Below, piece by piece: positions 23,151 through 62,400 of a stretch of 64,000 nucleotides of DNA. Position 1 is the first letter of the stretch. Each line of letters begins with the position of its first letter. The stretch is taken from positions 124,001 through 188,000 of the forward strand of contig JAAILG010000011.1 in assembly GCA_012026655.1 (NCBI GenBank), in the 5' to 3' direction. The position numbers were made by a program, and so were the translations under genes. The notes under the pieces were generated by a model. The model did not search any database and was not told where the DNA came from. It saw only the letters and a list, made by a program, of their open reading frames with translations. Source of the stretch: Hydrolagus affinis (Eukaryota).

Positions 23151-23353
23151 CTTAAAGAGGATATATAGGATGTACACAAATATTCCGAATCCGTAAATAG
23201 GGATGATCTGGCCCATAATGTTTTTATTGCCTCCTCCAACAGCTTTGGCTTTGACCACAGCTTCTGCATTGTTGAACTGGGAAGGGGCTGACCTGCTGGA
23301 TTTGATGTCAGAAGCTTTTGGACGCATCATGGGAGGAAATCGATTGGGGTTAG
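23151..23353 (-). CDS. RIC3: RIC3 coding exon 2 (RFPPMM motif and TM helix)
   Basis: ttttgcag| acceptor; NPNRFPPMMR...AEAVVKAK...MGQIIPIYGFGIFVYILYILFK; donor |gtactg; 203 nt, phase 1 to 0. Confidence 0.95.
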
Positions 23354-23724
23354 CTGCAAAACATAATAGACGAGAATCGTTTAAACATTTGCTACCCATG
23401 AATGGTACATTTTTAATCTTCATCAAAGTACAATTTGAGATTAAATCAATGTTTTTTTGCCAGCCTGCCTTCAGTTGCATTTTGATATCACCCTTTCTGT
23501 CTGCGTAATAAATTGCTTTGTGTTGAATTGGGAATATAGAGGTGTTGGTATTCTGGAAGGATGAGCCCAATTAGGTCCAATATAATGCCCCCAGCATCAA
23601 TTACCTGAGAGTGGCAAGTTATAGAGGAGGGATCAAAGTTCGGACTATCCTGATCTGTATCACGCAATATAATGCATTTATCCACTGAGTGATCAGGAGC
23701 AGCCAAACTGTTGCTCATTTGACA

Positions 23725-24065
23725 ATAGTCCTTGCATTTTGGTATAGCACCTAATCACATCAGAGGGATGTCTCAAAGCGCTTCACAGGATTTACTGTGA
23801 AATCGAGTGACTCTATATTTGTAGGCGAACACAGTATCCAAAGCAATGCCCCACAAATAGCCATGAAACGAATGACCATTTTATTTGGGGGATTGTTGGC
23901 CAGAATGTTTGGGAGATACTCCCTTCCCGAATAGTGCTACGGGATCTTTAACATCCACCTGAACAGGCAGATGGGACCTCAGTGTCACGTCTCATTCGAA
24001 GTGTAACATCTCACCCCCAGCATTGCATTGAAGTGTCGGCTTAGACTATGTGAGTTCAAGTCCCG
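23725..24065 (-). mobile_element. Deu-domain SINE
   Basis: aatagtgctacgggatctttaacatccacctgaacaggcaga (Deu domain, reverse) plus the SINE tail. Confidence 0.7.
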
Positions 24066-26649
24066 ATATGCAAACAAATATAACCATTATGTACAAAGCG
24101 TAAAAAGAGAAATATGTCTGCCACAAATAGAAATTTAAAACTTCATCTTTTACCCATTTTGTTGTCGTCGGGATCAAAGGACCCTCATCTTAATTTTTGT
24201 TGAGCCTCCGCTTATACTGTCTTCAGTTGCTAGGCTACCATTTGTATAAATAACTATTGCGAATGTTAATCTACTGTCTACTCTTTCATTACCAGATGTG
24301 AAGGTATTATAAAATGTCACTCAGTATTCATAGAATTAATCTGCATAAGCACCCAAGAGAGCAGTATTTTAAATAATGTAAATTGCATCTGATAAGTTTT
24401 CTGGCGTTTTGCTTATCAGCTGTGAATAGGTTAATCATTCTGTACAATTGGCTACATCTCTGCCAACTCTGCCCATCACTTGGGTATAACCTTTCTTATG
24501 GCTGTTAAAATAGACAATAATTCTACGGTGAAATTCATTCTATTATGCATAAATAAGTAATTGGAAACTATTGGTTAGCTGAAAGCCAATATCGAAAGTC
24601 AACAGAACTGTTTTTAAAATGTAATATTTCAAGGAGCTTTGTGTGCTTCAATACTTCTAGTTACAATATCAAGCTAATTTTGTAAATTTTGATTGATCCA
24701 AACTAAGATCTCTCTACACTCTAATTATTTGAAGATTTATCCAGAATAGCATTACCTGCACTGAACTTCAATTTAACACCTTCAGTTTTACAGTGCTTAA
24801 TGCACCATATCCAAAATTACTGCAGTCATTTTCCTTTATCTTGCTTACCTGAAATACTTTTTAAATCAAGGCTTACTCTAGATCTTAACTCTGTGCTCTG
24901 CACTTATTTTCCTTAATACAGTACTATTATTGGAGAGAAATACATAAAGAGCAAAGCTTCAAAAGAAGGCTTTGATGCATGTAGAGGTGAAGATGCTAGC
25001 CTGACTTCACTGGTGGTACTCTCTGGATTAAAATATTGTGGATTCAGGTCCACATTGGGGACTTTAGTGAGCACATTGATCGAGGCTAGCACCAATGCAG
25101 TTTGTGGACAGCACTACATTGATGAAGATGCCATCCTTCATATCAATTCTGCCAAGCCCAGGGCCATCTGCCACATTTGGCCAGTTTTGCTTTTCAGATG
25201 TGGCTAGTTCCACTCTGATGAATCAATTTGCGTTTCAACTTGTGGGATTGAAATGGATCTTCTGTCGCTTCTATCACATCAAAACATCTAAAAACTAGAA
25301 TATATATGGCCACTGGGTTGGACAGCACTGCTTTGGATGAGAAGTGAAACCGAGGTCTTATCTGTTTATTTAAGTGGATGTTAAAGAATCCACGGCACTT
25401 AATAACTATAATAATGAGATAATAAGAATCCTCGCATTTGATATGGTGCTTTTCATGTCTTCTAGACATACAATCATGGAATCATAGAATTTTATGGCAC
25501 AAAAGGAGGCCATTTGGCCCATCTAGTCTGTGTCGGCTCTTTGAAAAGAGCAACTCAATCCCACTGCCCAGCTCTCTCCCCATAACCTGACAGACCTGTT
25601 CTCCCTAAACATCTCAAAGCGCTTCACAGAATATACCGTAAAATGAATTGCTTGTATATTTTTATGGGTGAAACTTTCCAAAAAGAGAAGGGAGTTCTCC
25701 TGATGTCCTCATCAATAATGCTCGTTTAATTTGTCATCGACCTGGCCGTTTGAGGGATACTGCTGTTCACAAATTGGTTGCTGTATTTTTCCTACTAATA
25801 GTCACTACACTAAAACTTGAAATTCATTCTATTATGTATATCTGAGTAATTGGAAACCTAGTGGTTAGCTGTAAGCCAACTGAGGACTTGACAGGAAACT
25901 AATTGCCTTGAAACACTTAGATACTGTATTTCAATCTGATCAAGTAGTGTAGCGAGGATTATTATTGAAGGATTCAGTGAGCCATGTTTCGCATCTCACT
26001 CTCTTGATAGATACTGTTCATTGTAGCAATAATGTTTTTGGTGGCAGTGAAATCTAACCCTGTAGCAGTAAAGAATTTTTAAACAAGTTATCCCTCTGGG
26101 AAGCATGTGCACTCTATATTTTGGAATTCTCAAATCTAGTAGTTTGGATACTCTTAAGCATACAGATGGGTTTCCATATGAATTTGAAATCTGGCCAAAT
26201 AAACAATTTACAAAGTCAAAGCACACAGGTAAATACGATTTTAAAGGGTTCACTATATTATCTTAGTGACATCTACTGACATACCAATAATGTGTTGTAC
26301 TTTTGCATTAACTGGTTGCTAAATTTAAAAATGTTTCATGCTGTCTGATCGCTAACTGGAATATTGGCTCTCGCTCCATTGGATACAGTTTTATACATGT
26401 TGCTAGAACAAATAAGCAGTCTACTGTTGCCTGTTGAAACAAATTAGTACATCAGAATACAGGACACTAATATGAAATGATTATTAGCATAATCAAATGT
26501 TAGGTGGAACTATTCGTCCCTTACTGAAGTTTACCCATAATTGTTTCTAGTGTCTGCTGCAATAAACACCTACATTTCCCAGATTATTATTATTATAATG
26601 AAAGAAAATGAGGATACCCATGGAGAAAGTCACCAATTATATTTGGGGG

Positions 26650-26856
26650 AAACTCTGTTCTCTTTTCGAATAGTGTCATGGGATCTGAACAGGTAGACAT
26701 TTAACGTCTCACCCGAACGAAGGCACCTCCGACATTACGAAACAACCCCAGCATTGCATTGAAGAATCAATTTAGACCATAAGTCCCAACATGGGACACA
26801 AAACTGCAAACTTCTGACTCAGAGACAAGAGTGCTATCACTTCGCCAAGCTGACAC
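26650..26856 (-). mobile_element. Deu-domain SINE
   Basis: aatagtgtcatgggatct...ttaacgtctcacccgaacgaaggcacctccgaca. Confidence 0.7.
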
Positions 26857-29544
26857 ATTAACTTAATAATGCCAAGAATTGTCAAATGTGATAATGCAGA
26901 GATGGGATGTTGGAAGTAAAGAATACTCATTCAATATTTCTATCTTTTGTTCAGAGAATACACAGCAAATGAAAATGTTTTCCATTTTAATGTTCCTGTG
27001 AAAGAATTTTTTTTTGCTAGTTCAAACATCAGACAGAATATATTTTTATTTGGCTCATAATCTGATGATATATGCCCTGTCACAGCAACTCTATACTACA
27101 TTTAATAGTCTGACTTACAAACTTCAAACTGGATTCATTTTCTGACTGGTTAATTTTATGACTTTGTAAGTGGCAACAGAAGCCCTGAATTACCACCATA
27201 AATTCTTACTTTAAGATTGACCAAATTGGAAAACCATTTGCGGATGTTGCATAATGGACAACGTATATTCCCATCCACGTTTTCAAAGCTTGACCCTTGG
27301 CACCTAAATGCTCAATCGTATAAATGGAAAGATTAAAAAATGCGAAAATGAATGAGAAATGTTCTTACTTTCAAACCTTTATTAAAAAAAAGTTCCTCCT
27401 CTTACTGTGTACCGTTGACTGTTATGTATGTATGCAAGCAAAGCAAAATTTCTGATATCACCAGGTACATCCCACAAATTACAAGGAAATGCATAGTCAC
27501 ATTTTTAAAAAAAACATTCACCAGAAAGAATCTCAGCTTAAGACCATTACCTCTGACAATGCAGACTCCCTCACATCTGTACTGGGTGTCAGCCTAGAGG
27601 TCGAGCTTGGCTTGATCTAGCATGTTGCTCAAACCTATATGCATTGACACTGCAGTACAATAGTGGGGAGAGTGTTGCATTGCTGCAGATGCAGCCTTTT
27701 CGACAAGATGTTCAACTGATTTAAGTCAAGCTAATGGCTATTCAATAGTTTCTAATGTTTGTTTTCCTGCAATAAACTTGATTTTATTTTCCCTGAATTA
27801 CTTGGTTGAGTAATTCAGGCTGAGTATGAGCATCACTGAAACTTTCCTTGTCCAGTTGGGAGCTGCTCCACCAGCGGCTGACAACATAAATTCGAAAACT
27901 TGCCCACACACTTTAGTGCAGTAGAAAATATTTAATTTGGCTAGTTATCTGACATTTTGTGTTGACAATCCCACATTAATGTTTTGAATTCAGAGCGACC
28001 GACCCCCCACCACCCAACCACCAGTGTGCGATTCGATCTGTCAGTGAATGCAATAGCTTCTCCCATTCTCGAGTTCCACAAGCTAATTAAACCCTTGGCT
28101 TCCACTTTGTGCTCAAAGGAGCTCTGCTCACTCGTCTTCCACACATTGCCCAAGCAGGAGCCTGTCAAACCAATCAGTGCAGTCAAAGAAATCTGAACCA
28201 CCACAGAAAGCATTGCTTTGGGTTGGACTCGTTTCAAAAATCAACAGAAAAATTGTAATTGTGTTGCAGTTTTCATTTTGTGGCAGAAGCATTGCCGCAG
28301 CCTTCAAAGGTTAAAGGGAGACTGAGCTGCAGTCGGCGAATGTTTGACATTTTTGATGGTTTTTAAATTACTTTATTCAACCTACCAAATGAAATACTCC
28401 ATTGTAGATATTACCCATTTATCAAAATCGGACTGCACACAAAAATCCCTATACGATTTCATTTAGATACAGGTTTATATTTAACACAGAGTAAAGCCAT
28501 ACTGTACAATAGTTTGATAGATCAGATTTGTAGCAGCAGGACTCACAACATTCGCCTACAATAGAGCTCTACGCCTCCTAATCTCTCGCCGGGCCGGGTG
28601 TATTTCGAGTTAACCTGATCTAGAGTCCAAACTGAAAGTTCCAAAATTGCATTTTTCTTATAATTTTCTTTAAGATCAAGTTTGTTGGCTTATGCATCCT
28701 GGCTAAATCAAGGTTTTATTTTTGTCCAACTAAACAGTTTTTCCATTGCCTGTAGATGGGGGGAAAAATCCTACCTTCTATTTGGCTTTTGGTTCTGTTT
28801 ATGGCTCGACTGCACTTAACTATAGATAAATTTGATTTAAACCCTTGAGTTCCTATTTTGGGGAAGGAAGCTGTGTTTTGTGCCATGGAACGGTCTGTGT
28901 CTGGGAGGAATGAGTAGGCTGAATGACCTTCTCCTGTTCCTAAATTCCTCACTGGAGCTATAGATGATAATAACTTCTTGACCTATGTGCAACCATTGGC
29001 CAATGGATGCTTTTCAATCTGACCAGACTATGATAAATGTTTTATCAAAATTGGAGGGTTACAAGTACAACATGGACTATTATGATAGCATAGTAACATA
29101 AATGGTATGGTTAGTTATTCTGAGGGGCAAGCACACTGATAAAATAAAATGCCTAGTTCTGCTCCCAACCCTTTTTAAAGCCGAGTATTACTGAATTCAG
29201 TAATGTGTCTGATCACGAATAGGCTGTGGGTACAAATCATTTAGATCAATACACTGATGGTCCAAATTAGATTTTCTTGAGGGATTGTGGTAAACATCAC
29301 ATTGTACAAACATTGTAAACATGGTTTTATTTGAATGCAGAAGAAAACTTGTGTAAATATCAGCATAGTACTATTAGCATTAGTACAAGGCCTAGATGAT
29401 TTCAAGAGTACATTTGAAACCATTTTATTAAATCAATGGTGTTCTCAAAATATGTGGTTGTGGATTTGAGTCAAATCCAGTTACTTGTATTATGTAAAAT
29501 TTAACAATAGAACTCTAGGTGAGAAACTTGTAATGTGATTTAAA

Positions 29545-29810
29545 GTTTCAGATGAAAGGTTATCCATCTGAAACATTTACTCACTTGCATCTCTCCATAG
29601 ATGTTGCCTGGCACGCTGAGTGTTCCCAGCAACTTCTGTTTTTATTTCAGATTTCTAGCATCTGCAGTATTTTGCCTCCTGTTATTGGCAGTAACTGCTT
29701 GGATAAGGATTACAAAAAAAATTTGGGTGTAATTTAATGACTAAATCAAACCCTGAATAAACATTAGTCAAAAACGCAAAATATTGCAGATGCTGGAAAT
29801 CTGAAAAACC
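29545..29810. mobile_element. Penelope-like terminal-repeat remnants in inverted arrangement
   Basis: tttcagatttctagcatctgcagtattttgc (29645) is inverted to gcaaaatattgcagatgctggaaatctgaaa (29776); hammerhead-like core at 29549-29575. Confidence 0.5.
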
Positions 29811-30929
29811 GCAAATCACATTAACTTGTAGTCCTTTGCTAAGTAGTAATTTTCTTTTCAAAAAATATTTGGGGTTGCCTTTGTTAGCATTACAGTTGCA
29901 TATGAGCATATATAATATACATGTAGAAGAGTTTTAAATTAAAGAGATACCATGAAATAAAGCCATGTGTGTGTATTTTATATACAGCATACATTACAGA
30001 AGGTCTACTCGGTTACTGGGCTTAAGTGACTTGGCTGTCAATTTGCAGTTTCCCATGTGAATGTAGTACACTAAGTACCAGATCAATCACTGGCTTATCA
30101 GATGGGTTTGTCTCCTCTCTCCTCCTTGAAGGTGCTGAATTCCTGACATGTCCATGTGACCTTCACATGTGAGTTGATAGGCTTTTCCATTGATTGTGGA
30201 GCATGATCCCTGCCCACAATTCTCAATTTGTCCAAATCAGTCCTTTGCTTTCTAGCTGGGGTCATCCGATAACATAACCTTCCCCTACTCCCTCAAGGGA
30301 ATGAAATGTAAATTGTAATGCTCTTAACGCAATTTAATATACCGGCTGTAACATTGAAACATCTAAGTGTTTGAGAGCATCTTTCTGTATAGAAGCATGA
30401 CCTTATTTGTAGGCAAAGTGGTCGATTTTATACAGGGAAATGATCCTTCAACCTCCTGGCTCAATTCGCACAAGTTGAGACACTTACCAATTGAGCTATG
30501 GGGAGCTCTCCATTGCTAATGTTTACTGGGTTCGTTTCAGTCCAACTCAATAGCATGTACTTACCACTGTGTCTGGATAAATTAATTTCCAAATTAACTA
30601 CTCTTGCGAAGTTATTTTTGAAATGTTACATTAATTAAGATAAAGTTGCTTACAAAACACTCAAAATTAAGTTGGATTCAGCAAATGAGCCTCATGAGAA
30701 GTCGTCATGTCTCCTCATCAAGGACATTACTATTATTATTTCTAGTTCAGCAGTTGTTTTTGACACAAAGTGGTTTATCCTCGAATCTGCTTTCTAGTGC
30801 CATCAGTACAACATTCACATGCGCCCCCGCCCCCTACCCCCACCCCAGCACGATTGTGGACAGAAAAGTTTGGGCACAAGGGGAAATGGGCTTCATTCCA
30901 CTTGGGAGGCCTTGCTATTGTGATTGCCC

Positions 30930-31325
30930 GAGTGTCTCTGTGTGTCTACTCTCTACACGTGTCTCTATGTGAGTACATGTTTATTGATTGACTGTCACTC
31001 TCTGGGTTTGTGTCTCTCTCCTGTGTACGTGTTTGTGAGTGTCCTGTGTCTTTCTCCTCTTATGCATGTGTTTGTAAGTGTGTCCGTGTGTGTCGCTCGC
31101 TAGGTGTCTTTCTTCGCTGTGTGCGTTTGTGAGTGTCTGTAAGTGTGTCTCTGTCCTCAGTATGTGTCTGGTTGTGAGTGTCTGTATGAGTGTGACTCGC
31201 TCTCCTCTGTATGCATGTTTGTAAGTGTGTCCATGTGCGTCTCTTCTGTCTGTGAATTTGAGTGTCTCTGTGTGAATGCTTCTGTGTCTCTTTCCTCTGG
31301 ATGTGTATGTCTGTCTGTGTGCAGT
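30930..31325. repeat. Degenerate (TG)/(TC) low-complexity tract
   Basis: ~400 bp of tgtg/tctc microsatellite-like sequence. Confidence 0.85.
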
Positions 31326-32342
31326 GTTGGGTCCTGAAAGGGAGTGAGCAATTCTAGCCCCTCAATCAAAACACTGGTCCTAAGTGTTTTTTGGCAGATC
31401 TCCAGGTTGCACTGGTATCCTCTCCATCCCCAATGGGCCACCCAGTTTTTGTTTTTAAAAAAAGAAATTAATAAATGTTTTCTAACAATCTAATAGGTGG
31501 TATTTCCTCATGTTTAGTGTGTACCAATAAAGCGAAAACATGTAGGTTGGCAGTAAAACATACCTCAATAGCACCAACCAACCCAATGCGATTTTTCAGC
31601 AAAATTCCCCATGACTTGGGAGGCAAATTTACATACTTTTCTATTGGCCCAGCCCGTTATTAACATAGCATTGCCAACTCCTTATCCCATGAATAGTTCG
31701 GGTTCAACCCAATGGGTTCATACAATCATGAAAATGCAAGTACTGGAAACGGGAATGAAGGGGAATAAATAAGGATAAAAATGAAAACAAAACAATATGA
31801 TACAAATAAACTTTATTGGGGAACGACTTGTGAATTTGATCAGGAAGAAATAAATGAGCGGTTTAAGAAGCAGGTATTTCAATGCGGCCAACTGAAGAGT
31901 AAACTAAATGCAAGGGTAAGAAGAAGAGTAATGAATGAAAGGAATGCTGAAAGGGAGACGAAAGCAAAAGGTACAAGAAATAAAGTGAAGGCTTTAGATT
32001 TCACCCACAAAATATACCGTCAATTCGCTTTGCAGTACATTCTGCGAAGCGCGTTGAGACGTCCCAAAGACATGATGATGTTAGATCAAATGCAAGGATC
32101 CTTATATCAATGCAAGTATTATTATATCCAATGCATGAATTACGATTATATCAAATGCAAGGATTATTATGATTAATATTTAGAATAGAAAATTAAATGT
32201 TTGGAGCAGGAAGATAACGCAAGGCAGGTTTATAAATGAATGTTTTTTTTCTTTGGAAGGGGTGGGTGGAGCGAGAGAGAAAGCAGAAGCCGCACCTCGC
32301 TTTATTTAAAGATTTGTATATAAATCCCTTCCCATTCCTTAC

Positions 32343-32457
32343 CCTCCTTCGGATCGCCCCCCTTCCCTCGGACCAGGAAGAGTTTAGGAAAGACGACGGA
32401 GCAACAGAGGACGACACAGGAGACCAGGGCCACCTTTTGGAAAGCGGAGAGAGTCAT
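32343..32457 (-). CDS. RIC3: RIC3 acetylcholine receptor chaperone, coding exon 1 (signal/TM segment)
   Basis: gaggccATG; MTLSAFQKVALVSCVVLCCSVVFPKLFLVRGKGGDPKE; donor G|gtaagg; 115 nt, phase 1. Confidence 0.9.
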
Positions 32458-32499: not shown

Positions 32500-33000
32500 T
32501 TCCACTAAAACCATCAACTCAAGCCCCCCCACCCCGGCCGGGGAGAGAGGGGAGAGGGGAGGTGGGAGTTTAACGAGGAAACGAGAGAAGAGCCTAAAGT
32601 CAAGGCCCGGATGGGAACGGCCTCCTTAGCAACCGGGAGAGGAGGCGGGGTGGGGGGGGGGGGGAGAACCAGACCGGAAATAAACCCCGCAATACGTTTG
32701 TAGCCCAATGTTCGAGCCCAAAGTAGCCCAATGTTATTATAATCATGATAATTATTATTTTTAGGGCAGCAGCCTTTTTTAAAAAAAACAACAACAAAGG
32801 GAACGGCGAGTGCTTTTTTAATATATAATATATGTAACAAATAGTGCGAGTAAAGGTTGTTTAAAAAAAATCGCGAGGCGCCCGCCCAAACCCGCCCAAT
32901 TGGGGGCGTGAACCCTGGACACGTGGTGATGGACCGGACCGGAAGCAGCTCCCCTCCCCCCCCCACCCCGCCCACCCCCCACCTCTCTCTCTCTCTCGGC
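32500..33000. promoter_or_regulatory. CpG-rich bidirectional promoter (RIC3 on minus, snoRNA host gene on plus)
   Basis: Local GC/CpG enrichment; GC boxes 32881-32887 and 32891-32897, CCAAT 32896-32900, E-box CACGTG 32920-32925, ETS CCGGAA 32674 and 32939, TCGCGA 32871, YY1-like CGCCAT at 33000. Confidence 0.75.
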
Positions 33001-36000
33001 GCCATTGGAAGCAGCAGCAGCTCCTCCAGGAGCTTTGCCTGAGGTAACTTTATATTGATGTTATATATCCAGTTAAACATTATATATATGTGTGTGTTGT
33101 GTCCTGTCTTTTATATATTGTATATATATAGTTAAGAGTTAAAGCTTTAGGTTATTTGATATGTGTTGTGTCATGTATTTTATACATTATATATATAGAT
33201 AGATAATATATATAGATATATAATAAAGATACAAAGCTTCAGGTTACTTTATATGTTATACAGTCAAGAGATCCCACCTGAGGTTATGTTTATATTTTTA
33301 ATGATTAATTATTTCACACGTGATGTAGTCCCTAAGACCAAACCGAAGGTTTATTCTATATATTATTGCAGGGAGAGCGAGAGAGAGAAATCAAGCCGGA
33401 GGTTACTTTATTTTACTGATATTATAGCTTTCCAGACTTGAGAGACCAAACCCTGCGTCATTTACATAATGTAATTTAGTCACAAGTTTACTTCTTATGG
33501 AGTCTCGGGGAAACCACACTTGGAAGTTAGTGACAGTCACCAAGCATGTAATAACGCAATCATTGCCTTTTTGTAGGGGTTGGGGTGGGGATTTTAAAAT
33601 AAATTGGTTAGAGTTTAACAATAAGAGTCTTAATCCTTGCATTCGATTCGAAGTTCCTTTTTGTCTCGAGCCTGAGCTGGTTCTTAGTTATTGGGAGTTA
33701 GTTATAAGACCCGGCTTGTGCTATTTAAATAGTTATAAAAGTTTGATTCTCTGACCCTTTTCCTCCACCGTCGGCGGTTGAGTGATGTTGGAAGTTTCTG
33801 GAAGATCTTGTTGCATGTAGATTTTTATATCTTTCATCAACAACAAAAAAAAAGCCACTATCACTGGTTACCCGCAGCTCATTTTAAACCTTTCACTTTG
33901 AGCCCTCGGGCTGATCTTTTTATAATAATGATTATTGTTATTTCCCCTCCCTCTCCCTCATTTGATCTTTCGGCCTAATAAGTTCTGAAACTCACTGACT
34001 TTCTCCCCCGTTCAGCACAGGCAGAACCACGTGGAGACAAGGCAGTCAGACAGACCTCATGGATCGAGCAGTTTCACAGAAGATGGCGCTGCTGGAATGG
34101 GTATGGACTAGAGAGAGACAAACAGACACGTGTTGGGGAAAATGAGAACTTAAAAACGAGAATAACTGGACAATTGAGCAGCTTTAGTTAATATATATAT
34201 TTTATTATAGATATATACACATGCATAATATATATTTTAAAAGGGTTACTGGGTTAACAATCGTGAAGCTGTTCTCGTGTATGTGTGTTTCTGTTGGTAG
34301 TTTTATCAGTATTACTTGAGCTGAAATGTACAATGCCTCCATGGACCACATCTAATGCTTTTTAATTTGCATTTTAAACCATAAAAATATACCTACTTAT
34401 GCAGAGGAAGGAGCTAACTCATTTTACCTTGATGGGGCAGCACAAGCTTATTTTAATACCAGTCTTGTGTCTTTACAAGTGTGTCAGCTAATGAGAACAT
34501 TGTTTGATAATGATCGATGGGCAGCTTCAATACAATTGCAGCGGCATACTTACAATGTACAACTGCAGTGCTCTTTAAAAGAAGTGTTTTAAACCAGGAA
34601 AGTTTCATTTTACAGAACAATAGCAATACCAAAGGCTAAACTCGTCATTCTTATTTCCTGCAGAATTGCTTTTTGGCCACCAAGGTCAAAGAACAATGGA
34701 GACTAGATAGAGGCTTGCTGAATGGTGTGAAGGTAAGTGTCTTTGAACCGAAAAGGGATAAAATTGAGAGAAGCAAGAATTTTTGCTGCCCACCCTCCAT
34801 TGCAAACACACACACACACACACCCCTTCAACATTCAGGTAGATTAGGAATCTTATTTTAAAATTATGGAATGTTGCTTTGCGGAACTGACTTCCGGATT
34901 TCAGCCATAAAATAGTTATTTCACTTTATAGTAAATCCCATGAAGCGCTTTGAGGCATCTCAACAGTGACCTAAGATGCTTTATCAAATGAAAGGATTAT
35001 TATGTAAAATGAAGTAGAGCTCTGGCCTATACTTGGGTGTTATCCGACATGAATAACCTGGAGTAGAAGGTAGCTTCACTGTGGCCATGTATATTTACCA
35101 ATGCCACTCACAAATGTTCAAGCAGCTGTTGCGTCCTGTATTTTATACATACATATTTATAAAATATATATAGTCAAGAGGCAAAGCTTCAGTAAGCCCG
35201 GTATTAATAAATTGTCTGGAGTTCGGTTAGCATTATGTGTCCCATCGTCAGGAGAGACTGCATTTCAAACAGGAATTTCCATGTGCAGGTGTCATGCATG
35301 AAACTGGTTTGAAAGTTCTCGTGCTTAGTTTGTTTCCACGTGTATCAGACACCTGGCTGATCACTACAAAATAGGTTGTTCTTAATGGTCAGGAATTCAA
35401 TTGGTTACTGTAGGAAAATTATCTTGCACAAACGTTTTTTTGAATTGCATTGCTGCAATAGTCTTAACTCTTATTTTGTGATGTCCTTGCATTTATTGAT
35501 TTTGGATCTTTGGGACATCACAAGTTGTGGTTAGTTACTCCCTATTCATCTATAGTTCCATGAGTTCTGTTCTGCGAGACATCCTTTGGAGTCCATGTTT
35601 CATTTATGAGTGATTTAATATTGATCAGGATTTGGCTATGGGATTCATTGAAAACCAAGCCTAATCTTTTTGTGGATTTCCATTTCAGATTACAATCAGA
35701 GATTGTTTTCTTTCCCGATTGCTAGCCTGGGATATTGGAATCAGGTGAAGTGCTCTTATTGTCACCCTGACAGATTGGCAACATTTGCCCCTTCCTTGTC
35801 TTTATTGCTCAATCAATCATTGGATAAGATTAGAGAGCTTGATCTTTTGATGTTTGGCTTCTTACTTTTGAAACATCAAACTGCAGTTTTCTTTTTGGTG
35901 GTGACTGAAGCCAAACTGCTGGAATCCAATGCCAAATAATTACATTGCCATGTCGTCGTTAAATGACCATGTGGTTAGCAATCAGCAAAACACTTAAAAA

Positions 36001-37044
36001 TGGTGTGTTTAGACACAATGGTTCATTGAACCTTTGGCTTCTTAGCCCAGTTTCTCGAGAGGGATGAGTTTCAGGTTCAGTATTATTGCAGCTCCTTCAA
36101 TGTTGTTTGAGGGAAGATTGTGTGTAGGTGACCTACTACATCGTACTACAACAACACGATTACATTTGTAGAACGCCTTTCACGTTGAGAGGACGTCCCA
36201 ACATAGTAGTTGCAATGTTCGAAGTTTTTTTTTCTGAAGTGCAATTGGACACATCTGGTAGCCAAGCCAAGAGGGACATGCTCCTGGTTCATTGTTTAGG
36301 TAGGTAATGGGGTTAATTGTTTGCTAGCAGGCATCCACTAATGGCATTTCTTGATTAGTTAACCTCGATAAGCCTGGAAACCACATAAGATATTAATCAA
36401 ACCCTTAGCGTGAAAACCTGTTCTGGCGTGCATGCAACATGACATAAGTTCATATTGAGTGCTTGACAGCTCTCAAGAATCATTGTTGATCCTTTATCCT
36501 TCAAACGCTCATTTCTCCAGTTTAGCTGAGTAAGGCAGTACAAGAAGTTTCATTGTATGCCTTTGGCTGATTATATTGTAGATTTCAGTAATTTTTTTGG
36601 TAGCATTGCGTATATCAAGGTCACTTCTAGTGCTGCTAAATGGAGTCTTTGGATGATTTTACACTAAATTTGTACCAACAATGGTAGTGTTCAGCTGTAA
36701 TAACCGATGAAATCTCTTTCTGGAGAAATTAAGCAGTTTTTTTCATTAGAATTAGTTTGATTCTAAATAGTTTGATTTCAGTTCGAAGGTAACCGAAATG
36801 GTAGGATAATCAGCTCACTATTTCACTTTTTTTTAAGAAAATGCTTTGAAAAAGCAGGTAAAACACTTGCTGTATCTATTGGATTGATGGAACTGCTGGA
36901 ATCCATTTAAAAATCTAGCAGTCTATTGGTTTATTCAGTTACAAAATAACTATGTTAGTTATACAAAAATAACATGTGTTATTCCTTTTTTCTAAAATAC
37001 ACTAGACAAATGCCAAGTTTATTGTAACAAAATATATGCCTGGT

Positions 37045-37136
37045 TAACTGGTGATAGAAAGTTTCTCCTTACATTTATCCCTCATTTAGGAACGATAGAA
37101 CAATTTAAAATCATAATGAAAACATTCTGATTATTT
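37045..37136 (+). ncRNA. Candidate box C/D snoRNA of unrecognised family (copy A) with 18S-complementary D guide
   Basis: C-like GTGATAG 37051; TAATGAAAACATT immediately before D box CTGA 37127-37130, complementary to 18S AAUGUUUUCAUUA; 81 nt upstream of the acceptor at 37211. Confidence 0.5.
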
Positions 37137-37458
37137 CATACAATATTAGATGATGTAATCCAATATCCTTAACCTAAAAAGATATTTAAATTTGGCTTTC
37201 CCCTTTTTTAGGCTGAGCTACAAAGCTGAACACTGAAATGTAGTGCCTCTGCTGTTGGTTGTCCTCATTTCTGCAGAAAGGCTTGGATGCCTATTTCTGG
37301 TATGTATGAGAAGCTTGATATATGTTAAGCGCTCTTGAGACGCCGCCCCACGTGAAGGGCGCGATATAAATGCAAGTTGTTGTACATTAAAAATGCACTA
37401 CTAGTGTACATTGTAAGTGTAACAAAATTACATTTATAGAGTGCTTTCATTGAGAATC

Positions 37459-37543
37459 TCCAGAGTTACAAATGATGTTCTCACGATGGTCTTCATAGTA
37501 AATGTGATGAAATTTCTGTATGATATTAGCTGATAGCTCTGGA
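37459..37543 (+). ncRNA. SNORD35: Box C/D snoRNA, SNORD35 (U35) family, copy 1
   Basis: Terminal stem TCCAGAGTTA/TAGCTCTGGA; box C ATGATGT 37472; guide TCTCACGATGGTCT complementary to 28S AGACCGUCGUGAGA; D' CATA 37494; C' GTGATGA 37504; D CTGA 37530; 81 nt upstream of the acceptor at 37614. Confidence 0.9.
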
Positions 37544-38214
37544 TTATTTTGTTGATTCAAAGTAGAAATGCGGGGAATGTGTTACAAGGTAACTCATCAG
37601 ATTGTTTTTCACAGCTGAAAATGAAGGTGTTCCAAGGCAATATTTCTGGATCCATGGATCTTTAGCAATGCTAAGCAGTCTGTTCAGGTATGCATGAGGA
37701 CTAATTATTCTTGTGGGTTCCCTGAATGTTAAACTATCTCGGTGACTTGGTTTCAATACATGTTAGCTTTACTGACACTAGCATCAGTGAAGGGACTTGT
37801 GTACCTTGCTTTCCTAGAGAAATTAAAAATCTCAAGCCTTCGCTTCCAGAAAGTGAAAGTGTGGCTCCTCTCAGCTAAATCAGTAACGCATTTGTAAAGA
37901 TTTACTGCTTTATTATAAATGAACTAAAAAGAGTGACAGTTGGAAATAAAATTTGCAACTAGTCTTATTAATTGTGATTCTAGAACACGCGTTTTTTAGT
38001 TTAACACTTGTATTTATAACTTTACTTTTTTTTATCCTGTTTAACGTACACTTTTTCAAATGGTTAGTTCATTTGCAGCAAGATATATGGTTCGTTGTTT
38101 AAAGAATCAAATGTATTTTGTAGAATAGTTGCATGGCAGATTTGCTTCATTTTTACACGTGGGAATGGTTATTGTAACTGCGTTGATGAAGCTGCCCAAT
38201 GGCAACATCTGGTT

Positions 38215-38313
38215 AAATAACTGGTAATAGAAAGTTTCCTCTTACATTTATCCCTCGTTTAAAGCACCTGGTTAGAATAATTTAAAATTCTAATGAAAAC
38301 ATTCTGATTATTT
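38215..38313 (+). pseudogene. Paralogous copy B of the candidate C/D snoRNA (box C mutated)
   Basis: GTAATAG at 38224; guide and CTGA intact at 38291-38307; AAATAA/TTATTT flanks. Confidence 0.4.
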
Positions 38314-38389
38314 CATACCACTTTAGACTTTAATAATGCTGTACTTGTGCTTTTAAGTGCACATTAAATTGTTGTATTCATTGAGATTC

Positions 38390-38474
38390 TCCAGAGTTAC
38401 AAATGATGTTCTCACGATGGTCTTCATAATAAATTTGATGAAATTTCTACATGAAATTAGCTGATGGCTCTGGA
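38390..38474 (+). ncRNA. SNORD35: SNORD35 family copy 2
   Basis: Same stem, boxes and intact guide TCTCACGATGGTCT; C' is TTGATGA; D CTGA 38461. Confidence 0.88.
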
Positions 38475-38637
38475 TTATTTTGTTGCTTCCAAGTAGAAAT
38501 GGAGGAGACTTGTTACAAGGAAACTGATCAAATTGTCTGGTTTCTAGCTAGTTTTTTCACAAATGAAGATAAGTGCTCCCTGGCAATTTTGAATTCATGG
38601 ATCTTCAGCGATGCAGTCTGTTCAGGTGGGCGTGAAG

Positions 38638-39178
38638 TAGTGTCCGTCGATATTGAATTTTTCTGGTATCAATATATCGGTGGGCTCATATTGATATCAC
38701 CAGGTTTTTTTTACTCGTGTTCCAAACCTTTACATATGAATGGCTTGGGAGGGTTGTGTGCAAATCTGATTGTGTTTGGTAGTGGGGGGAAGGGAAGAAG
38801 GGGAATGTGTGTGCATTCAGGGATGCGCGCGCATTCAGATATGTGCTCTACGCCCAGGAGGTTTGCAATGCCGGCGACAAGGTCTGTTGAACTTTCTTGT
38901 TACTGTTTTTGTTGTTTGTTGTTGTTGATGGAGCCCTTTGGCGCTTTAAGAAAATTAAGCTCTTGTATGCGTTGTGTCGTCAAGTACATTTGAACCTTTG
39001 GTTGTATATTTGCTGTATGCTGTAACGTGGCATATGTTGATGATATACTGATATTTCGTGGATATACCGATTTTTTTTCATACCGAACTTTTTTGATATA
39101 CGATATATTCACATTACCAATATTGGGATATCAATATGAAAAATTATACCAATATAATCGATATATCGCCGGACACTA
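38638..39178. mobile_element. Non-autonomous hAT-superfamily DNA transposon (541 bp)
   Basis: TIRs TAGTGTCCGTCGATAT / ATATCGCCGGACACTA (15/16); perfect 8-bp TSD GCGTGAAG (38630-38637, 39179-39186); subterminal GATAT/ATATC repeats; absent from paralogous units. Confidence 0.9.
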
Positions 39179-39281
39179 GCGTGAAGGCTACTTGTGGATT
39201 CCCTGGGTGTTAAATTATCTGGGTGACCTGGTATCGTTATATGTAAGCTTTCCTGAGCCCTAGTATCAGTAAAGGGATATA

Positions 39282-39622
39282 CAGTAAAAGCCTGTTTATC
39301 CAACACCCTCTGGGGGGGGTCGACTAATTGATTGTCGGATAATCGGGCGGCAAGTTGCCGAAAACCTAACACAAAAAAATTACTTATTTTAAAACATACC
39401 ATATTAATAATATACTAAATAGTAACAATATGGTATGGATACTTACCAATAAAGATTCAAGCACACTTGGTAAAACACAATTCTTTTACCGTTCTGCTAA
39501 AAAACCATAGTTCGTAAGTTTAATAAGTGCGCAGAGTGAGCATACTCGCGATTGCTGAAATGGGAAATTGCTCCGGGTATGCAATCCGGTTGATCGGGTC
39601 ACGGATAAACAGACCTTTACTG
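39282..39622. mobile_element. Tc1/mariner (Tigger/pogo-like) MITE (341 bp)
   Basis: TIRs CAGTAAAAGCCTGTTTATCC / GGATAAACAGACCTTTACTG (18/20); TA on both sides. Confidence 0.85.
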
Positions 39623-40041
39623 TATGTACTTTGCTTACCTATCAGTAGTTCCCTCCTACATTTACCCCTCATTTAAACACTTTGTTTGATTGAAATAAAT
39701 TGGATTGAAATATTTTGTTTATTTAATTCTACATTGGATGGTGTGATGCAATATCCTAAACTAAAAATGTATTTACATTTGACTTTTGTCATTTCCTTTT
39801 TTTTAGGCTGAGCTACAAAGCAGATACTGAAATGCAGTGTCCCATTGCAGATTGTCTCCATTTCTTCAGAAAGGCTTGGATACTTGTTCTCCAGGTATGT
39901 AAGAGAAACTATGTGTTAAGTGTTCCAAGACACTGCCCTGTGTGAAGTACACAATATAAAAAGCAAGTTGCTTTCGATTTTAATGATGTTAAATAAAGGT
40001 GCTTATAAGTGCACATTAGATCACTGCATTCATTGAGATTC

Positions 40042-40126
40042 TCCAGAGTTACAAATGATGTTCTCACGATGGTCTTCATAGTAAATGTGATGAAATTTCT
40101 ATATGACATTAGCTGATGGCTCTGGA
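40042..40126 (+). ncRNA. SNORD35: SNORD35 family copy 3
   Basis: Intact stem, C, D', C' and D boxes and guide. Confidence 0.88.
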
Positions 40127-40674
40127 CTGACTTTTATTGATTCAGAATAGAAATGAAGGAGACTTATTGTAAGGTAACTCATCAAATTGTTTTTGTTTTC
40201 AGACAGTTTTTCTAAGCTGAAGAGGATATTTCTGAATCCATGGGTCTTCGGGAATGCTAAGCAGTTTGCTCCGGTAAGCATGGGGGCTACTTAATCTTGT
40301 GGTTTTGCCGAGTATTAAATCGTCTGCGTGATCTGGTTTCAGTGCATGTAGAGTTTACTGACCCAGGCGTCAATAAAGGGACTTGCTTTCCTACCAGTGA
40401 GAAATGCAAGCTCTCTCTCTCTCGCCTGCGCTTTCACAAAGTGAGATAAGTGGGTTGACACTTGCATAATAACTCTTAATACCCTTTTTGATTCTTTTTA
40501 AAGCACGCTTTTTCAAATGCCTAGTCAGTTTGCGACAAGATAAATGGTTAGGTTCATTGATTAGAGAATCAAATGTATTTTCATAGATGAGTTGCATGGC
40601 AGTTTTATTTCATTATTATTTGTGGAAATGGTTTTTATAACTGCTTTGAAGCTGCCCAATGGTAACTTCTGGTT

Positions 40675-40773
40675 AAATAACTGGTGATAGAAAGTTTCCT
40701 CTTACATTTACTCGTTGCTTAAAACACCTGGTTAGATTAATTTTAAATTCTGATGGGAGCATTCCTATTATTT
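40675..40773 (+). pseudogene. Paralogous copy C of the candidate C/D snoRNA (box D lost)
   Basis: GTGATAG 40684; guide TGATGGGAGCATT followed by CCTA instead of CTGA. Confidence 0.35.
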
Positions 40774-40849
40774 CATACCACATTAGACTTAAATAATGCT
40801 GTACTCATGCTTTTAAGTGCACATTAGATTGCTGCATTCATTGAGATTC

Positions 40850-40934
40850 TCCAGAGTTACAAATGATGTTCTCATGATGGTCTTCATAATAAATGTGATG
40901 AAATTTCTATATGAAATTAGCTGATGGCTCTGGA
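40850..40934 (+). ncRNA. SNORD35: SNORD35 family copy 4
   Basis: Intact boxes and stem; guide TCTCATGATGGTCT (C>T, becomes a G-U pair). Confidence 0.85.
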
Positions 40935-41996
40935 TTGTTTTGTTGCTTCAAAGTAGAAATGGAAGAGACTTGTTGCAAGGTAACTGATCAAATTGTTTTT
41001 ATTTCTGCTAGTTTTTTTTACAGCTGAAGATAAGTGATCCATAGCAATTCTGAATCTGCAAAATGCTAAGTCTTCAGGAATGCTAAGCAACTTGTTCAGG
41101 TGGGCGTGAAGGCTTAATCTTGTGGTTGTCCTGAGTATTGACCTGTCTGGATGACCTGGTTTCATTGCATGCAAATTTTACTGACCGTTATATTGATGAT
41201 GATCAGGAGTGGGTATACATACTTGTTTACCTATCAGTAGGGAAAATACAAGCTATCACACATCTGTGCTTCCACAAACTGAAAGAGTGGCTCCCTCTCT
41301 GTCAGCTACGGCAGTGACATATTTGTAAAGATACATTGTTTTATTGTAGATTAACTAAAACGAAGGACTTTTGGAAATAAAAATCGGTAATTAATCTTCT
41401 GTTATTTATCATTTCAAATTGTAGTACCCAATTCAGTAGTTTAATATTAGTTTCTTCTGCAAAATATACAGTCGTTTCACCTTATAGTGTCTACTATGAA
41501 GCTGTTTGAGACATCTCGAAAATGTGTGATAAGGCGCGATATCAATGCAACAAGTAGTATTACACAATGGCCCTATAATATATTTTTGTTCATTTTATAA
41601 AGTACAATTTTCAAGTGCTTAGTTCATATGTAGATCGTGGTTGGAAGCCACACAAGCAAAACATCTGGGTTTGATTCCCACCAGGGCAAAAGGTTGGGCG
41701 AGTTTCCTTTCTCCACACTCCTCTGTTGACCTGGCAGTAAGTGGAAACCTGGTTGTTAGTTGATTGGTAGATTGTGTTTCTGGGGATAATAGTTCCTTAA
41801 CAGAAAATCGGTCACTTCAAACCACAGCTTTCAATGAAATAGCTAATGCAATTGGTTGTTATTTTTCACCTACAAAATATACTGTCAATTCATTTTACAG
41901 TTTATTCTGTATAGTTCTTTGAGGCACGTCGAAAACAAAATAAGCTGTTATATAAGATGCAGGGATCATTATTATTTGTGACAAAATATGAGACAA

Positions 41997-42079
41997 TCCA
42001 GAGTTACAAATGATGTTCACATGATGGTCTTCATAATACATGTGATGAAATTGTTATTACGTTGACTGATGGCTCTGGA
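41997..42079 (+). ncRNA. SNORD35: SNORD35 family copy 5 (most diverged)
   Basis: Intact boxes and stem; guide TCACATGATGGTCT with one mismatch and one extra wobble; 3' half diverged. Confidence 0.8.
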
Positions 42080-43059
42080 TTATTTTATTGATTCAAAGTA
42101 GGAATGAAGGAGTCTTGTTGCAAGCTAACTGATCAAATTATTTTTCACAGCTGAAGATGAAAGTGCTCCATGGTAATATTTCTGAATCCACGGGTCTTCA
42201 GGAATGCTAAACAGGTGGGCATGAGGGCTACTTATTCTTGTAGTTTCCTCGAATGTAAAACTGTCTGGGTGACCTGGTTTCAGTACATGTAAACTTTGCT
42301 GACTCTCAGATCCCTAGTGCTTAAATGACTTGCTTCTTCTAGTTTATTTGTAATTTATTTGGTCTTCAAAACTGTAGCCTTTGGGGGGAATACTACTATT
42401 CTCCCAGAGCTGCTGGCTCTGTTTAATTCTGGCCAAAATAATTTTGCACTTTATAATTTCTCATTAGTTAGGAAAAATAATGCAATTTGTCCCTGAACTT
42501 GGCTATCATCTACAAACATACTTTCCAGTAATTGGGAATAGTGGCTGTTTTTTTTTTCCTCTTTTCCCTTCTGCCTCATTCTGTCTCAGTCCATTTGAGT
42601 TTAGACCAATAATAGCAAAAAGTTCAGTTTGGCGTTTATTTAAAACATTTGGTGCGTCGTATGTTGCCAGTTCTCGATTTAACATTCCAACTAAGAATGA
42701 TAAATGAGTCAATTTCCCCTCATCTGTAACCTTTCTTCTCTTCTAGACAACAACTTTGAAGAGGGATTCAATACAGGGACAAAATGAATTCACAGCCGTC
42801 GTCTTTCAGTACTTCACCTTACTGGGTCATCCAATCATTAAAATGCCTGGGATGCATTTTGATGCATTTGGGTTTGTGAACTCTTGCTGGTTTTTGTACA
42901 GCTAGTTCGCTAGTGCTGTAGTTTCACAGCTGAGTCCAGTTGACTGCCTTATGTGTGATAGCGAAGAATAGTCTTTGTGATTGACTTCAGTTTGTGCACA
43001 AAATCATTTCTGGCTCCTATTGAACTAAATGAGGCCATAATTAAAATAAATTTCACTGA

Positions 43060-43340
43060 GCAGTGCATATTGGGGGGTTTCTTGGTTTGTCTCTGAGCTG
43101 GTTTGGCTGGAGCCAGTAAGAGAGCTATGATTGTCCTTGGTGCCTTTGGGCTTCAGAGAGGAAATTAATCAGAATTTCTACTCTTGATTGCTTTTCAGTG
43201 GGTGCTGCTGGAAACTGCATTTCTGGACATTGAGCAAGGCCAATTGGTCTTAATTGTCATTCTCCTGGGGCCAAATAGCCTGTTGACACTGCCTGAAACA
43301 TGAGGAATGGGTTACGAAAGAGTGTTGTTACTTGTGGAAT
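43060..43340 (+). repeat. Old interspersed repeat (SINE-like), with a related reverse copy at ~30080-30290
   Basis: tcagtgggtgctgctggaaa...aatagcctgttgacac resembles the reverse complement of 30170-30270 (gttgataggcttttcc...tttctagctggggtca). Confidence 0.4.
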
Positions 43341-59400: not shown

Positions 59401-62400
59401 TGTCAAAAGAGGACATTGAGGGGGGGGGAAAATGAATGGAGAGCCATTACTGAACCTTTCTGCTACGGCTTAGTGTTCCTCTGGTTAACAGAATAACTAA
59501 GCTGTCCGTGTATTCCTCTAATAGAGATCCTCTAACAGAAAGCTTATCATTAGCTTAACAAGAGGACATTGCCCCTTTCAAAAGGGGGCACTGTGCTCTT
59601 AGAAAATGTGTTAGCTATTTTGTTCAAAACAAATTACAGTAACAGAAACTCATAGCATATTGTGTTTTTGCCTATTATGGCTTTGTGATAGAGACTCTTT
59701 CTCCAAAGCAGCAAAAAAAATGTTCACCTAACACGTTTTCAGAAAGATTTTATCTTTCGACAGTGTATGTCTCCTCCGTTCTTATGAGGTGTTTTGCCTC
59801 CTTTTTCCTTCGACTTGGGTTGGATCCATGTACTTTGTCTGAGTTGTATTTATTTGTGAGCATTGAGAGCAAGTGTTATTAGGCTATTTGATCACAGGGG
59901 CATCATAACCAAATTTGGTTCTCGACTCAACTAATGACTTTTCTTCATCTTAATACTTTATAAAGCCAGGCTTACAATGTAGCAATCAGAAACTAGAATC
60001 CTGCTTTCTAGCCTGAGACATTATAGCTTTGAGGGATTCATGAGACATTGGTGCCAATTGTAAAATTAATAATTCTTAATAATAATCCTTGCATTTGATA
60101 TAGCACCTTATCATGTTGTTGAGAGGTTTCAAAGTGCTTCACAGGATGTACTGTAAAGTGGAATGACTATTTTATAACGAAACACGGCAGCCAATTGCGT
60201 ACAGCAATGCCCCACAAACAGCCATGGAGCGAGTGGCCAATTTGATAATGTCAATCTGTCCACCGCCATGGTTGCTATTACAATTCAGCAACAGGAATCA
60301 GCTATGAAGTAATGTGCGATTGACAGAATTAAAAGCCTCAAGAAATTCCAAGAAAATATGTACCAAAGGCCTCTTGAGTTTTTAGGTGGAGCTGTAATGG
60401 CACAGGCTGAATGGCTGCATTTCTTGGGGTCATTTCTGATTTTGGTTGCTTTCTGTGTTACCCAGCATTTGTCAACATGGCCGCGTGTTGTGATGTGATA
60501 CACTAAACTTAAATCACTAGAGCAGGGCTCCTAATTCAACACGAATCCCCAAGGTACCAGCTTGCGTTTTACACTCTGACATCTAATGGGTTTTGTATTA
60601 CATCTATAACATTCAGAAGTTTGACATCCTAAATTTATACCTCACGTTTCACCATCAGAACTGTTATCCTTCTCTCCCCCCACTTGGTAAATGAAGTACT
60701 TTACTAGGCTCCTGACCTATGATATGACAAATTGAGATGATTGTTTTGAGGAGCACAGCTGACATTGATGACAACAAATGAGTGGTGGGAGGAGAAGGGA
60801 GAAAACACTAATGGACTAAACAGTGGCATTGCAGTCAGAATGTGCTGCAGGATATTAGACGGAGCCGTTTCCTTAGTGTTTGAATTATTGGCTTTTGCTA
60901 TTGTCATCTTCCTGATGAATCAGCTGCTCATTGTGGCTAACCTCTCAGGTAAAGAGGTTACCTCTTGTTCTCTGACTCGGGAGGGGAGCCATGTCAATGT
61001 GGATATACCCTTTTTATCAGTTTACCATTGGACTCCATCGACGGTTGTTGAGATGCTGAGCGATACTTTTAGATCAGTGAATCTAAATGCTCACTTGCCT
61101 GCCACTGGGCAGTATCCTCACACAGTTCATGCTTAACTACCTCAAACGCTGTTTTCTAATCCATTTAAAGCCGGAGGTATATTAAGCCATCCGATGGCAA
61201 CTTACTTACAGCTACTCATGCTTAATACTTAATACCAGAAATGAGCCACTTGACTCATGTAAATTGGCATGGCTTATAGCGCTCGAATGGCAACTACACA
61301 AAGACTTGATTTTAACCGTGTTTCAATGACTGAATTACACGTTCTAGCTTAAGAATACTCCAGATGGAAAATATTAATCGTTGAGCAGAGAAGGCAAATG
61401 CCTGTAAGATCACAAGAAATGTTTCGCTGATGAAGGTACTTTAGCTCATTTGATTTCATCCTAGTAGATTGCCAACCTAGGCAACTACCTGTTACAATAT
61501 CGAACTGTTTTAAATGCATTCAGGCCTCAACTAGCTGCTTATTACCCTCTATATAAAGTAATACCTCCTGTTGTTTGTCCTAAAATTGCCCTTCCCTTTC
61601 CTTGGTGTATTTGAAAATAATCTTCTGTTCAATTATCCTGTTGACCAGCTTGTAGCTTATACTGCTTTAGTATCCCATGAGATTGTCTATCATTCCCATC
61701 TCCACAAATGATTCTTTCAGGTCCATGTCCTTCGAGAGCCTATAGAGGACGGCACCTTGCTCATTTCAGCTGCCGCGTTATTGAGATGGTTAGAGATGAA
61801 GAGCCCACCCAGCTTCTGGAGAAACTCTTCCTCTACACATGCAGAGCATGCACAAGGAATTTGTTGCTTGACTGACTTAGAAACATGCACATCGCCTTGG
61901 AATGTTTCAATGTGATTTCAGTCAGATGCAATTTCGGTTGGATGGAGTCGACAGAATTAATTTTCTCGTACAACACAGGAATTATTTCTGCCCTTGTAAA
62001 ATTTGATGTAGCCATTTGACCTGATCATTTTCTTTCTAATTACAGTATTTCATTGTCCAGTGCTGTTTTGTTCCCTCGCAATGTTAGATTCTCTTTTTAA
62101 AATCTCATATTCAGGAGAGTAGCCTGTAGCCCTTTACCTGTTGACCCTTCTTTGTGCAGCTGCTGCAATTTCTGGGATTTTCTATAAAGCGTGGTGGTAT
62201 TTTATCCTTTGGATCCTATCGTATTTGATATATTTGTGTACAGCATGCCTTGGGTCATGCAAGACGAAGCAAATACATGATTTTCCCAGTGCCTTTGGGA
62301 CGTCCTCCCGACATGAAACGCTCTGTACAAATTTAGTTTGTTGATTCTCTTCTCACCACCCTTCCACATCCCCCACCCAAAAAATAAATAAAGTTGTCAT

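Follow-up and report, generated by a model that had tools for sequence, protein, structure and literature searches.

A candidate lineage-restricted box C/D-type snoRNA gene from an intron of a spliced SNORD35 host in Hydrolagus affinis, with a predicted target at 18S rRNA U1015

The DNA analysed here, a stretch of 64,000 nucleotides of the Hydrolagus affinis genome (hereafter the window), raises the question of whether a short intronic element, named copy c1, encodes a box C/D-type snoRNA that guides 2'-O-methylation of 18S rRNA. Analysis revealed that the host is transcribed from the plus strand and spliced, that the box D of c1 lies 81 nt from the 3' splice site, and that the bases directly before this CTGA pair perfectly with the 18S rRNA of the same genome. 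The element likely belongs to a real family of C/D-type guide genes local to this host. On the evidence of the DNA, c1 is tentatively read as a lineage-restricted box C/D-type snoRNA gene, located in a spliced intron of a SNORD35 host, which would still yield a guide RNA predicted for U1015; that c1 methylates U1015 today seems doubtful.

The candidate element and its pairing with 18S rRNA

The 15-mer TAATGAAAACATTCT (37114-37128) is exactly complementary to L013:116-130, part of an 18S rDNA fragment from the same genome, and the 18S match of the original prediction is therefore now anchored in the organism's own sequence. Its length was revised: the 15-mer ends in a CT that already belongs to box D, and the guide is therefore 13 nt rather than 15 nt. 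The D+5 base of c1 (37122) lies opposite L013:122, which is a U as predicted. With Am1031 positioned via the pairing of zebrafish SNORD59 (as given in the available part of PMC7668251), this U lies 16 nt upstream of Am1031 and therefore corresponds to U1015 in human numbering, instead of U1016 at 15 nt upstream.

Several features of the box C/D class were found in c1, including a CUGA box D near the 3' end, an antisense element directly upstream of it, and an intronic position. The RUGAUGA consensus of box C near the 5' end was not found; GTGATAG, rightly described as non-canonical by the original prediction, keeps the GA of the sheared pairs and the U, with its final two bases swapped relative to RTGATGA and the stem II G-C pair lost. 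Moreover, a C-like motif as good as that of c1 occurs upstream of 138 of the 652 CTGA in the window, and the C-like box therefore carries little weight. The duplex between c1 and 18S rRNA is weak (-12.9 kcal/mol vs -23.1 for SNORD35), the guide folds together with box D into a local hairpin, and the 18S target word is AT-rich and partly self-complementary. No convincing pair of C'/D' boxes was detected. In a search space of ~4.9 kb of rRNA fragments of this genome (without 5.8S or snRNAs), no second target of c1 was found, and in these partial rRNA sequences the 5' half gave no duplex of more than 11 bp with 2 G.U and none common to all copies. For fuller rDNA, an LSU family search and two primer patterns returned no match. 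It was also observed that a 16-nt block in the 5' half (37068-37083) is kept in c1, c2, and c3, with no target found for it; it may serve as a second guide or be left over from SNORD34. As a separate observation, three 28S rDNA fragments (L037, L038, and L039) end within a few bases of one 28S position and run into a 10-nt tandem repeat, which we take to be a possible site-specific insertion, e.g., at an R2-type target site.

The original prediction had cautioned that an AT-rich 15-mer could match by chance, and the genome bears this out: 1.11 Gb contain 13 exact copies of the 15-mer compared with 5 of the reversed control, and the word hence means little on its own. Two of the 13 occurrences fall in the window, and one is the 18S rDNA fragment itself. 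The other loci with the 15-mer make a biased background, having been chosen by that word and including real snoRNAs, and were left out of the chance estimate. When Markov-simulated stretches before CTG were compared with 4,865 nt of own-genome rRNA fragments, a Watson-Crick run of at least 13 directly before CTGA arose in 305 of 3,000,000 cases (1.0e-4), a rate that a complete rRNA set is estimated to raise by roughly a fifth. Of the window's 653 CTGA, no more than two, that of c1 and that of its paralog c2, are preceded by 13 pairs, the next best reaching 10. With 653 CTGA on the two strands at 1.0e-4 each, ~0.07 such chance matches are expected in a window of 64 kb, which is not negligible over a large scan, and the genomic context narrows chance. 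Across the nine introns of the host, only seven CTGA end 50-110 nt before an acceptor, comprising five D boxes of SNORD35-like copies, one CTGA in a SNORD35 flank, and that of c1.

As for the site, the claim that no vertebrate guide is known for it largely stood, with no methylation of this position in the tables for zebrafish, Xenopus, and others. No 18S site is listed between U799 and A1031 in the zebrafish RiboMeth-seq data (available portion of PMC7668251), the Xenopus table lacks U977, the equivalent of human U1015 (portion of PMC6984369), and a table covering fly, human, mouse, yeast, Arabidopsis, Xenopus, and Dictyostelium passes from human 867 to 1031 with nothing between (in the accessible part of PMC11014333). 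The guide motif was not found in the accessible portion of a zebrafish snoRNAome supplement, a file that may lack sequences (PMC11880993). The claim is qualified by a weak computed 18S-1015 target for SNORD144, a human-only prediction with an ICI of 0.17 that was unselected by its authors, in the available part of a human catalogue (PMC4914119). A literature search on the 18S site, shark snoRNAs, and SNORD144 yielded nothing on point, and maps of trypanosomes or other groups could hold the site.

The host gene, its SNORD35-like copies, and the paralogs of c1

Table 1. Coordinates of the host gene, the candidate element, and related features in the window
Feature	Position	Strand	Remarks
RIC3	23151..32443	-	Pfam PF15361 match in exon 2; exon 1 placed by eye using the ORF list
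Host gene, apparently non-coding	33000..43300	+	multi-exon, read-supported splicing, divergent from RIC3
Host first exon	near 33000-33044	+	placed from read coverage; joint not listed
Host exons joined by reads	~34017-34100, 34664-34732, 37212-37299, 37615-37687, 38548-38625	+	
Host exons joined by reads, continued	39807-39894, 40203-40273, 41012-41099, 42151-42214, 42747 onward	+	
Host intron holding c1	34733..37211	+	GT..AG; removed in spliced RNA reads
Copy c1, predicted box C/D-type RNA	37045..37136	+	80 nt from C-like box to box D; presumed RNA ends
c1 C-like box GTGATAG	37051..37057	+	5/7 match to RTGATGA
c1 antisense element, 13 nt	37114..37126	+	perfect Watson-Crick match to own 18S, L013:118-130
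c1 box D CTGA	37127..37130	+	81 nt upstream of 3' splice site at 37211
SNORD35-like copy a, box C to box D	37472..37533	+	10-bp flanking stem; 29.1 bits vs gathering score 36
Copy c2	38215..38313 (38214-38318 at its widest)	+	guide and box D as in c1 (38291-38307); terminal stem of 6 bp; box C GTAATAG
SNORD35-like copy b	38403..38464	+	Rfam model match below gathering score
Copy c3	39645..39728	+	5'-truncated (without box C); guide and box D decayed
SNORD35-like copy c	40055..40116	+	Rfam model match below gathering score
Copy c4	40675..40773 (40674-40778 at its widest)	+	retains GTGATAG and the 6-bp stem; four A-to-G changes in the guide; CCTA in place of box D
SNORD35-like copy d	40863..40924	+	Rfam model match below gathering score
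SNORD35-like copy e	42010..42069	+	found by alignment; absent from cmscan list at E<=1

The longest ATG frame of the host in the joined exons has 67 codons (the first two exon starts being guessed and one junction being off by a base). Nine splice junctions place the transcript on the plus strand, eight of them listed as GT..AG and one in two registers. The joint 34730/37210, supported by 7 reads over 3 runs of one sample, removes the intron holding c1 and confirms the 3' splice site that the original prediction had placed 81 nt downstream of box D. The RNA evidence consists of three polyA single-cell runs from one sample of one study; they contain no reads over c1, a result that is uninformative on a snoRNA. 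The position of c1 agrees with the rule, stated in the available text of PMC8178906, that C/D snoRNAs lie within ~100 nt of the 3' splice site in a spliced host. The window also contains the end of TUB. Elsewhere in it, an ATGATGA...CTGA pair downstream of TUB (1603-1657, plus strand) gave no Rfam match and no guide of at least 11 pairs, a weak SCARNA7 match (34764-34940, minus strand, E 0.79) lies over a CA repeat and is probably due to chance, and two hydrophobic open frames resembling membrane-protein exons (60750-61136 and 62123-62344, plus strand) had no Pfam match.

Four SNORD35-like copies in the host scored 25.8-29.9 bits against the Rfam model, under its gathering score of 36. Flanking stems of 10-12 bp were present in 5/5 copies, and the distance from box D to the acceptor was 81, 83, 86, 87, and 81 nt, respectively. 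The equality of spacing between c1 and its neighbour claimed by the original prediction was thus upheld, both being 81 nt (joint 37298/37614, 8 reads, for copy a). A canonical SNORD35 was located in an RPS11 intron elsewhere in the genome, and the host copies (60-62 nt from box C to box D) are shorter than it. In RPL13A (L036, G000:C29811), three SNORD33/32-family copies and one SNORD34 were identified, and no SNORD35 was seen, including in the intron that follows SNORD34. A single snoRNA per intron is usual in vertebrates; in the host, two snoRNA-like elements occur per intron at 38215-38464 and 40675-40924, because the exon between them is missing.

The original prediction gave only one copy of the element and so missed three paralogs, c2, c3, and c4. 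A genome search with the element returned at least three matches (c1, c2, and c4), all of the listed ones within the window, and c1 is accordingly not a dispersed repeat or SINE. Copies c1 and c2 are identical at 87 of 97 positions with no difference over the last 28 nt, the guide/box D block, and their upstream flanks align no better than shuffles (218/500); the flanks of c2 and c4 are 83% alike. Copy c2 has lost the sheared-pair G of box C and lies 240 nt from the 3' splice site, in an intron common to SNORD35-like copy b. The four changes in the c4 guide (40751-40763) are all A-to-G opposite U, and therefore all 13 positions are still able to pair, D+5 itself now being G.U; the duplex energy is -12.1 kcal/mol vs -12.9 for c1.

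In addition, the terminal stem of both c2 and c4 comprises 6 bp without a mismatch, and 5 nt separate it from the GA of box C; this is the register of 5/5 SNORD35 copies, and 6 bp in that register was found at 0 of 1,304 random CTGA-anchored positions. The stem of c1 in the SNORD35 register is only 3 bp because of a 4-nt deletion in its 5' arm, in line with the weakness flagged at the outset. The pairing energy of the flanks was no better than that of shuffles for c1 (402/500), c2 (264/500), and c4 (166/500), compared with 1, 3, and 0 of 500 shuffles as good for SNORD35 copies a, b, and e, respectively.

Signs of constraint were also detected. With c1 as the outgroup, 2 private changes were counted in c2 and 13 in c4 (p=0.007), and the same polarised count in the adjoining SNORD35 unit gave 11 and 16 (p=0.44). 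The changes of c1 itself fell at 0/24 box and guide positions and at 11/73 positions elsewhere (Fisher p=0.06). Judged against the lowest neighbouring-flank divergence (17%), the 13 differences in 97 positions were not significant (p=0.21), and the 17-nt guide and box D gave p=0.04. Patchy gene conversion could be the source of the c1/c2 identity. Copy c2, the best conserved, combines a broken box C with the wrong spacing and is not explained by selection for methylation. GTGATAG is shared by c1 and c4 and is therefore old, so that it probably predates a split after which constraint still acted, which suggests that this box C was tolerated. In a related genome, one c1 change (37096), outside the boxes and guide, was among the changes listed (16/20 substitutions, 0/6 gaps); this genome is ~98% alike, which is too close to be informative on selection. 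Local duplication produced the four copies, of which c1 alone could still work.

Other identities, proposed mechanism, and rival explanations

A cmscan against Rfam, proposed as a check in the original prediction, left the candidate claimed by no family. The whole window gave 0 matches at gathering score; for c1, only chance-level matches appeared at E<=10 (RAGATH-27, E 0.16; minus-strand SNORD101, E 0.43; minus-strand snoZ159, E 0.79), and nothing below E 3.9 was found for c2. SNORD35 (RF00211) had no model match on the candidate at E<=10, and its alignment was at chance level (188/300 shuffles as good); SNORD33/32 (RF00133) was rejected both as family and as ancestor, given no model match, an alignment at chance, and no guide for 18S U1326/G1328; and SNORD34 (RF00147) had no model match and no intact 28S U2824 guide with a D' box. 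A DNA-level duplication from RPL13A or RPS11 was likewise rejected, as the alignable parts are limited to SINE-like pieces and the 5' half of SNORD35. Folding was no better than that of shuffles (z +0.08 to +0.94), arguing against a box H/ACA or hairpin RNA. TTGATGA near 38184, a conceivable other box C for c2 lying upstream of it, is absent from c4 and has no closing stem, and an external stem around c1 (37020-37031 with 37134-37145) was not above shuffles. The 27-nt 3' block had 0 matches in metagenomes. A pattern of box C, guide, and CTGA matched 62 loci (22 distinct, 17 in open frames, 1 with a 4-bp stem), and these matches are ascribed to chance because prokaryote genomes give similar counts (18 distinct, 13 in open frames, 0 stems).

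The C/D reading of the original prediction thus gains support from the own-18S match, the spliced intron with its spacing, the stems of the paralogs, and conservation concentrated on the boxes and guide, and is weakened by a box C that departs from the consensus and by the fact that no copy is fully intact. Strict membership of c1 in the C/D class is not established because its box C fails the consensus; the element looks like a C/D guide and would work like one. In the proposed mechanism, the intron would be spliced and debranched, after which exonucleases would trim it to ~85-90 nt; GTGATAG and CTGA would form a weakened kink-turn, in which the sheared G.A pairs and the U.U are kept and an A.C replaces the G-C, and which would be bound by SNU13, NOP56/58, and fibrillarin; the D+5 rule would then direct fibrillarin to 2'-O-methylate 18S U1015. 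As background, the title of a paper published by Watkins and colleagues in 2002 reports stem II to be essential. Once the intron is debranched, intronic C/D RNAs are released from it by trimming, with the core proteins shielding them (stated in a portion of PMC5519232), tandem sheared G.A pairs are required at the stem II edge of the kink-turn (passages of PMC8162545), and the methylation site is set by the fifth base from box D, perfect antisense elements sometimes leaving rRNA unmodified (both in the accessible text of PMC8522698). A bolder version, in which c1 would be the active founder of a new C/D guide family with the box C GTGATAG, installing Um1015 and perhaps derived from a retargeted SNORD34 duplicate, so that the four copies would record birth, constraint, and decay, likewise seems doubtful.

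With its imperfect box C, c1 may no longer work. It is rather unlikely, though in keeping with part of the data, that c1 is a snoRNA gene by origin that is now dead or inert, either because the four copies are decaying or because the c1 RNA binds 18S rRNA without methylating it. Every copy carries a lesion (a short stem and an odd box C in c1, a broken box C in c2, truncation in c3, and a missing box D in c4), only ~37% of annotated human C/D copies are expressed according to part of PMC8178906, and U1015 is unmethylated in the available portions of the zebrafish, Xenopus, and multi-species catalogues; however, the lack of changes at functional positions of c1 and its retained 81-nt spacing argue against this, and the odd box C is old, having already been there while constraint acted. 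That the locus is ordinary AT-rich intron sequence caught in tandem duplications, with the match, the CTGA, and the spacing coincidental and the c1/c2 identity due to gene conversion, is improbable: it would require the match, the in-register 6-bp stems, and a spacing of 81 nt inside a real SNORD host to fall together, as well as homology stopping at the 5' end of the predicted RNA, although very many windows were scanned at the chance rate given above and neither a structure signal nor an Rfam family was found.

A drifted SNORD34 paralog, whose 3' end would match 18S rRNA largely by accident and whose 5' block would be a relic of the 28S U2824 guide, is also improbable as an explanation, and the SNORD34 link is suggestive only. 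The SNORD34 in this genome's own RPL13A has the run AAAACATT before box D, as does the candidate, and an ACATT-ending block after box C is common to both; in an anchored global alignment, c1 outscores all 187 control segments, c2 outscores 186 of them, and c4 182. The apparent lack of SNORD35 from RPL13A also counts for this explanation, as does the gene order of human RPL13A, where SNORD34 presumably precedes SNORD35A. These likenesses are offset by a local alignment without significance (as good in 26, 93, and 151 of 300 shuffles), a four-copy profile search that misses SNORD34 at E<=50, the lack of an RF00147 cmscan match at E<=10, 0 host exons aligning to RPL13A, the lack of a D' box at the SNORD34 spacing, and the choice of SNORD34 after six snoRNAs had been compared.

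If c1 is a guide gene for U1015, as tentatively read here, it would add to the small subunit a new ribose methylation, located 16 nt from Am1031, itself widely conserved, and would do so in a vertebrate lineage for which no modification map was found in the literature; it would also indicate that a C/D guide can persist although its box C disrupts the stem II G-C pair. The set of four copies, decayed to differing degrees, forms a compact natural series for the birth and death of guides.

Comparison with known guide systems

Like vertebrate intronic box C/D guides, c1 has a CTGA box with a 13-nt antisense element upstream, spans ~80 nt, and is located in an intron 81 nt from the 3' splice site, and copies within one host gene are known among such guides as well. 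It differs from them in its GTGATAG box C, its 3-bp stem, and the lack of a detected C'/D' pair or second guide, and its RNA is predicted. With SNORD35 (RF00211), c1 and its paralogs have the host gene, the 81-nt spacing, and the terminal-stem register in common, but c1 shows no sequence similarity to it, and its target, 28S C4506, differs. With SNORD34 (RF00147), two short collinear resemblances link c1 to the copy in this genome, but there is no significant model match, and the 28S U2824 guide is interrupted in c1 and without its D' box. SNORD59A/B, which guides 18S Am1031, is the nearest known 18S methylation guide, its target lying downstream of U1015 by the 16 nt given above; its guide and site are different from those of c1, and only a weak match on the opposite strand was seen by cmscan (RF00160, E 0.79). 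SNORD144 (revised SNORA97) resembles c1 in the 18S-1015 target computed in the catalogue noted above, and differs in that this target is a human-only prediction for a therian snoRNA hosted by SEC31A.

The closest parallels are lineage-restricted guides for sites unmethylated in humans, namely zebrafish SNORD200-204 and the SNORD52/202 array in FP101887 (passages of PMC7668251) and Xenopus NET1-3 (passages of PMC6984369). As far as these portions describe them, such systems comprise tandem copies, some degenerate, in a non-coding host, as appears to be the case here. In zebrafish, 10 novel sites and 5 novel SNORDs have been reported (portion of PMC7668251). The zebrafish and Xenopus guides have expression and modification data behind them and none of them targets U1015, whereas c1 is known from its DNA. 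Lineage-specific guides being known from zebrafish and Xenopus, the present find, if borne out, would extend a known pattern and overturn none.
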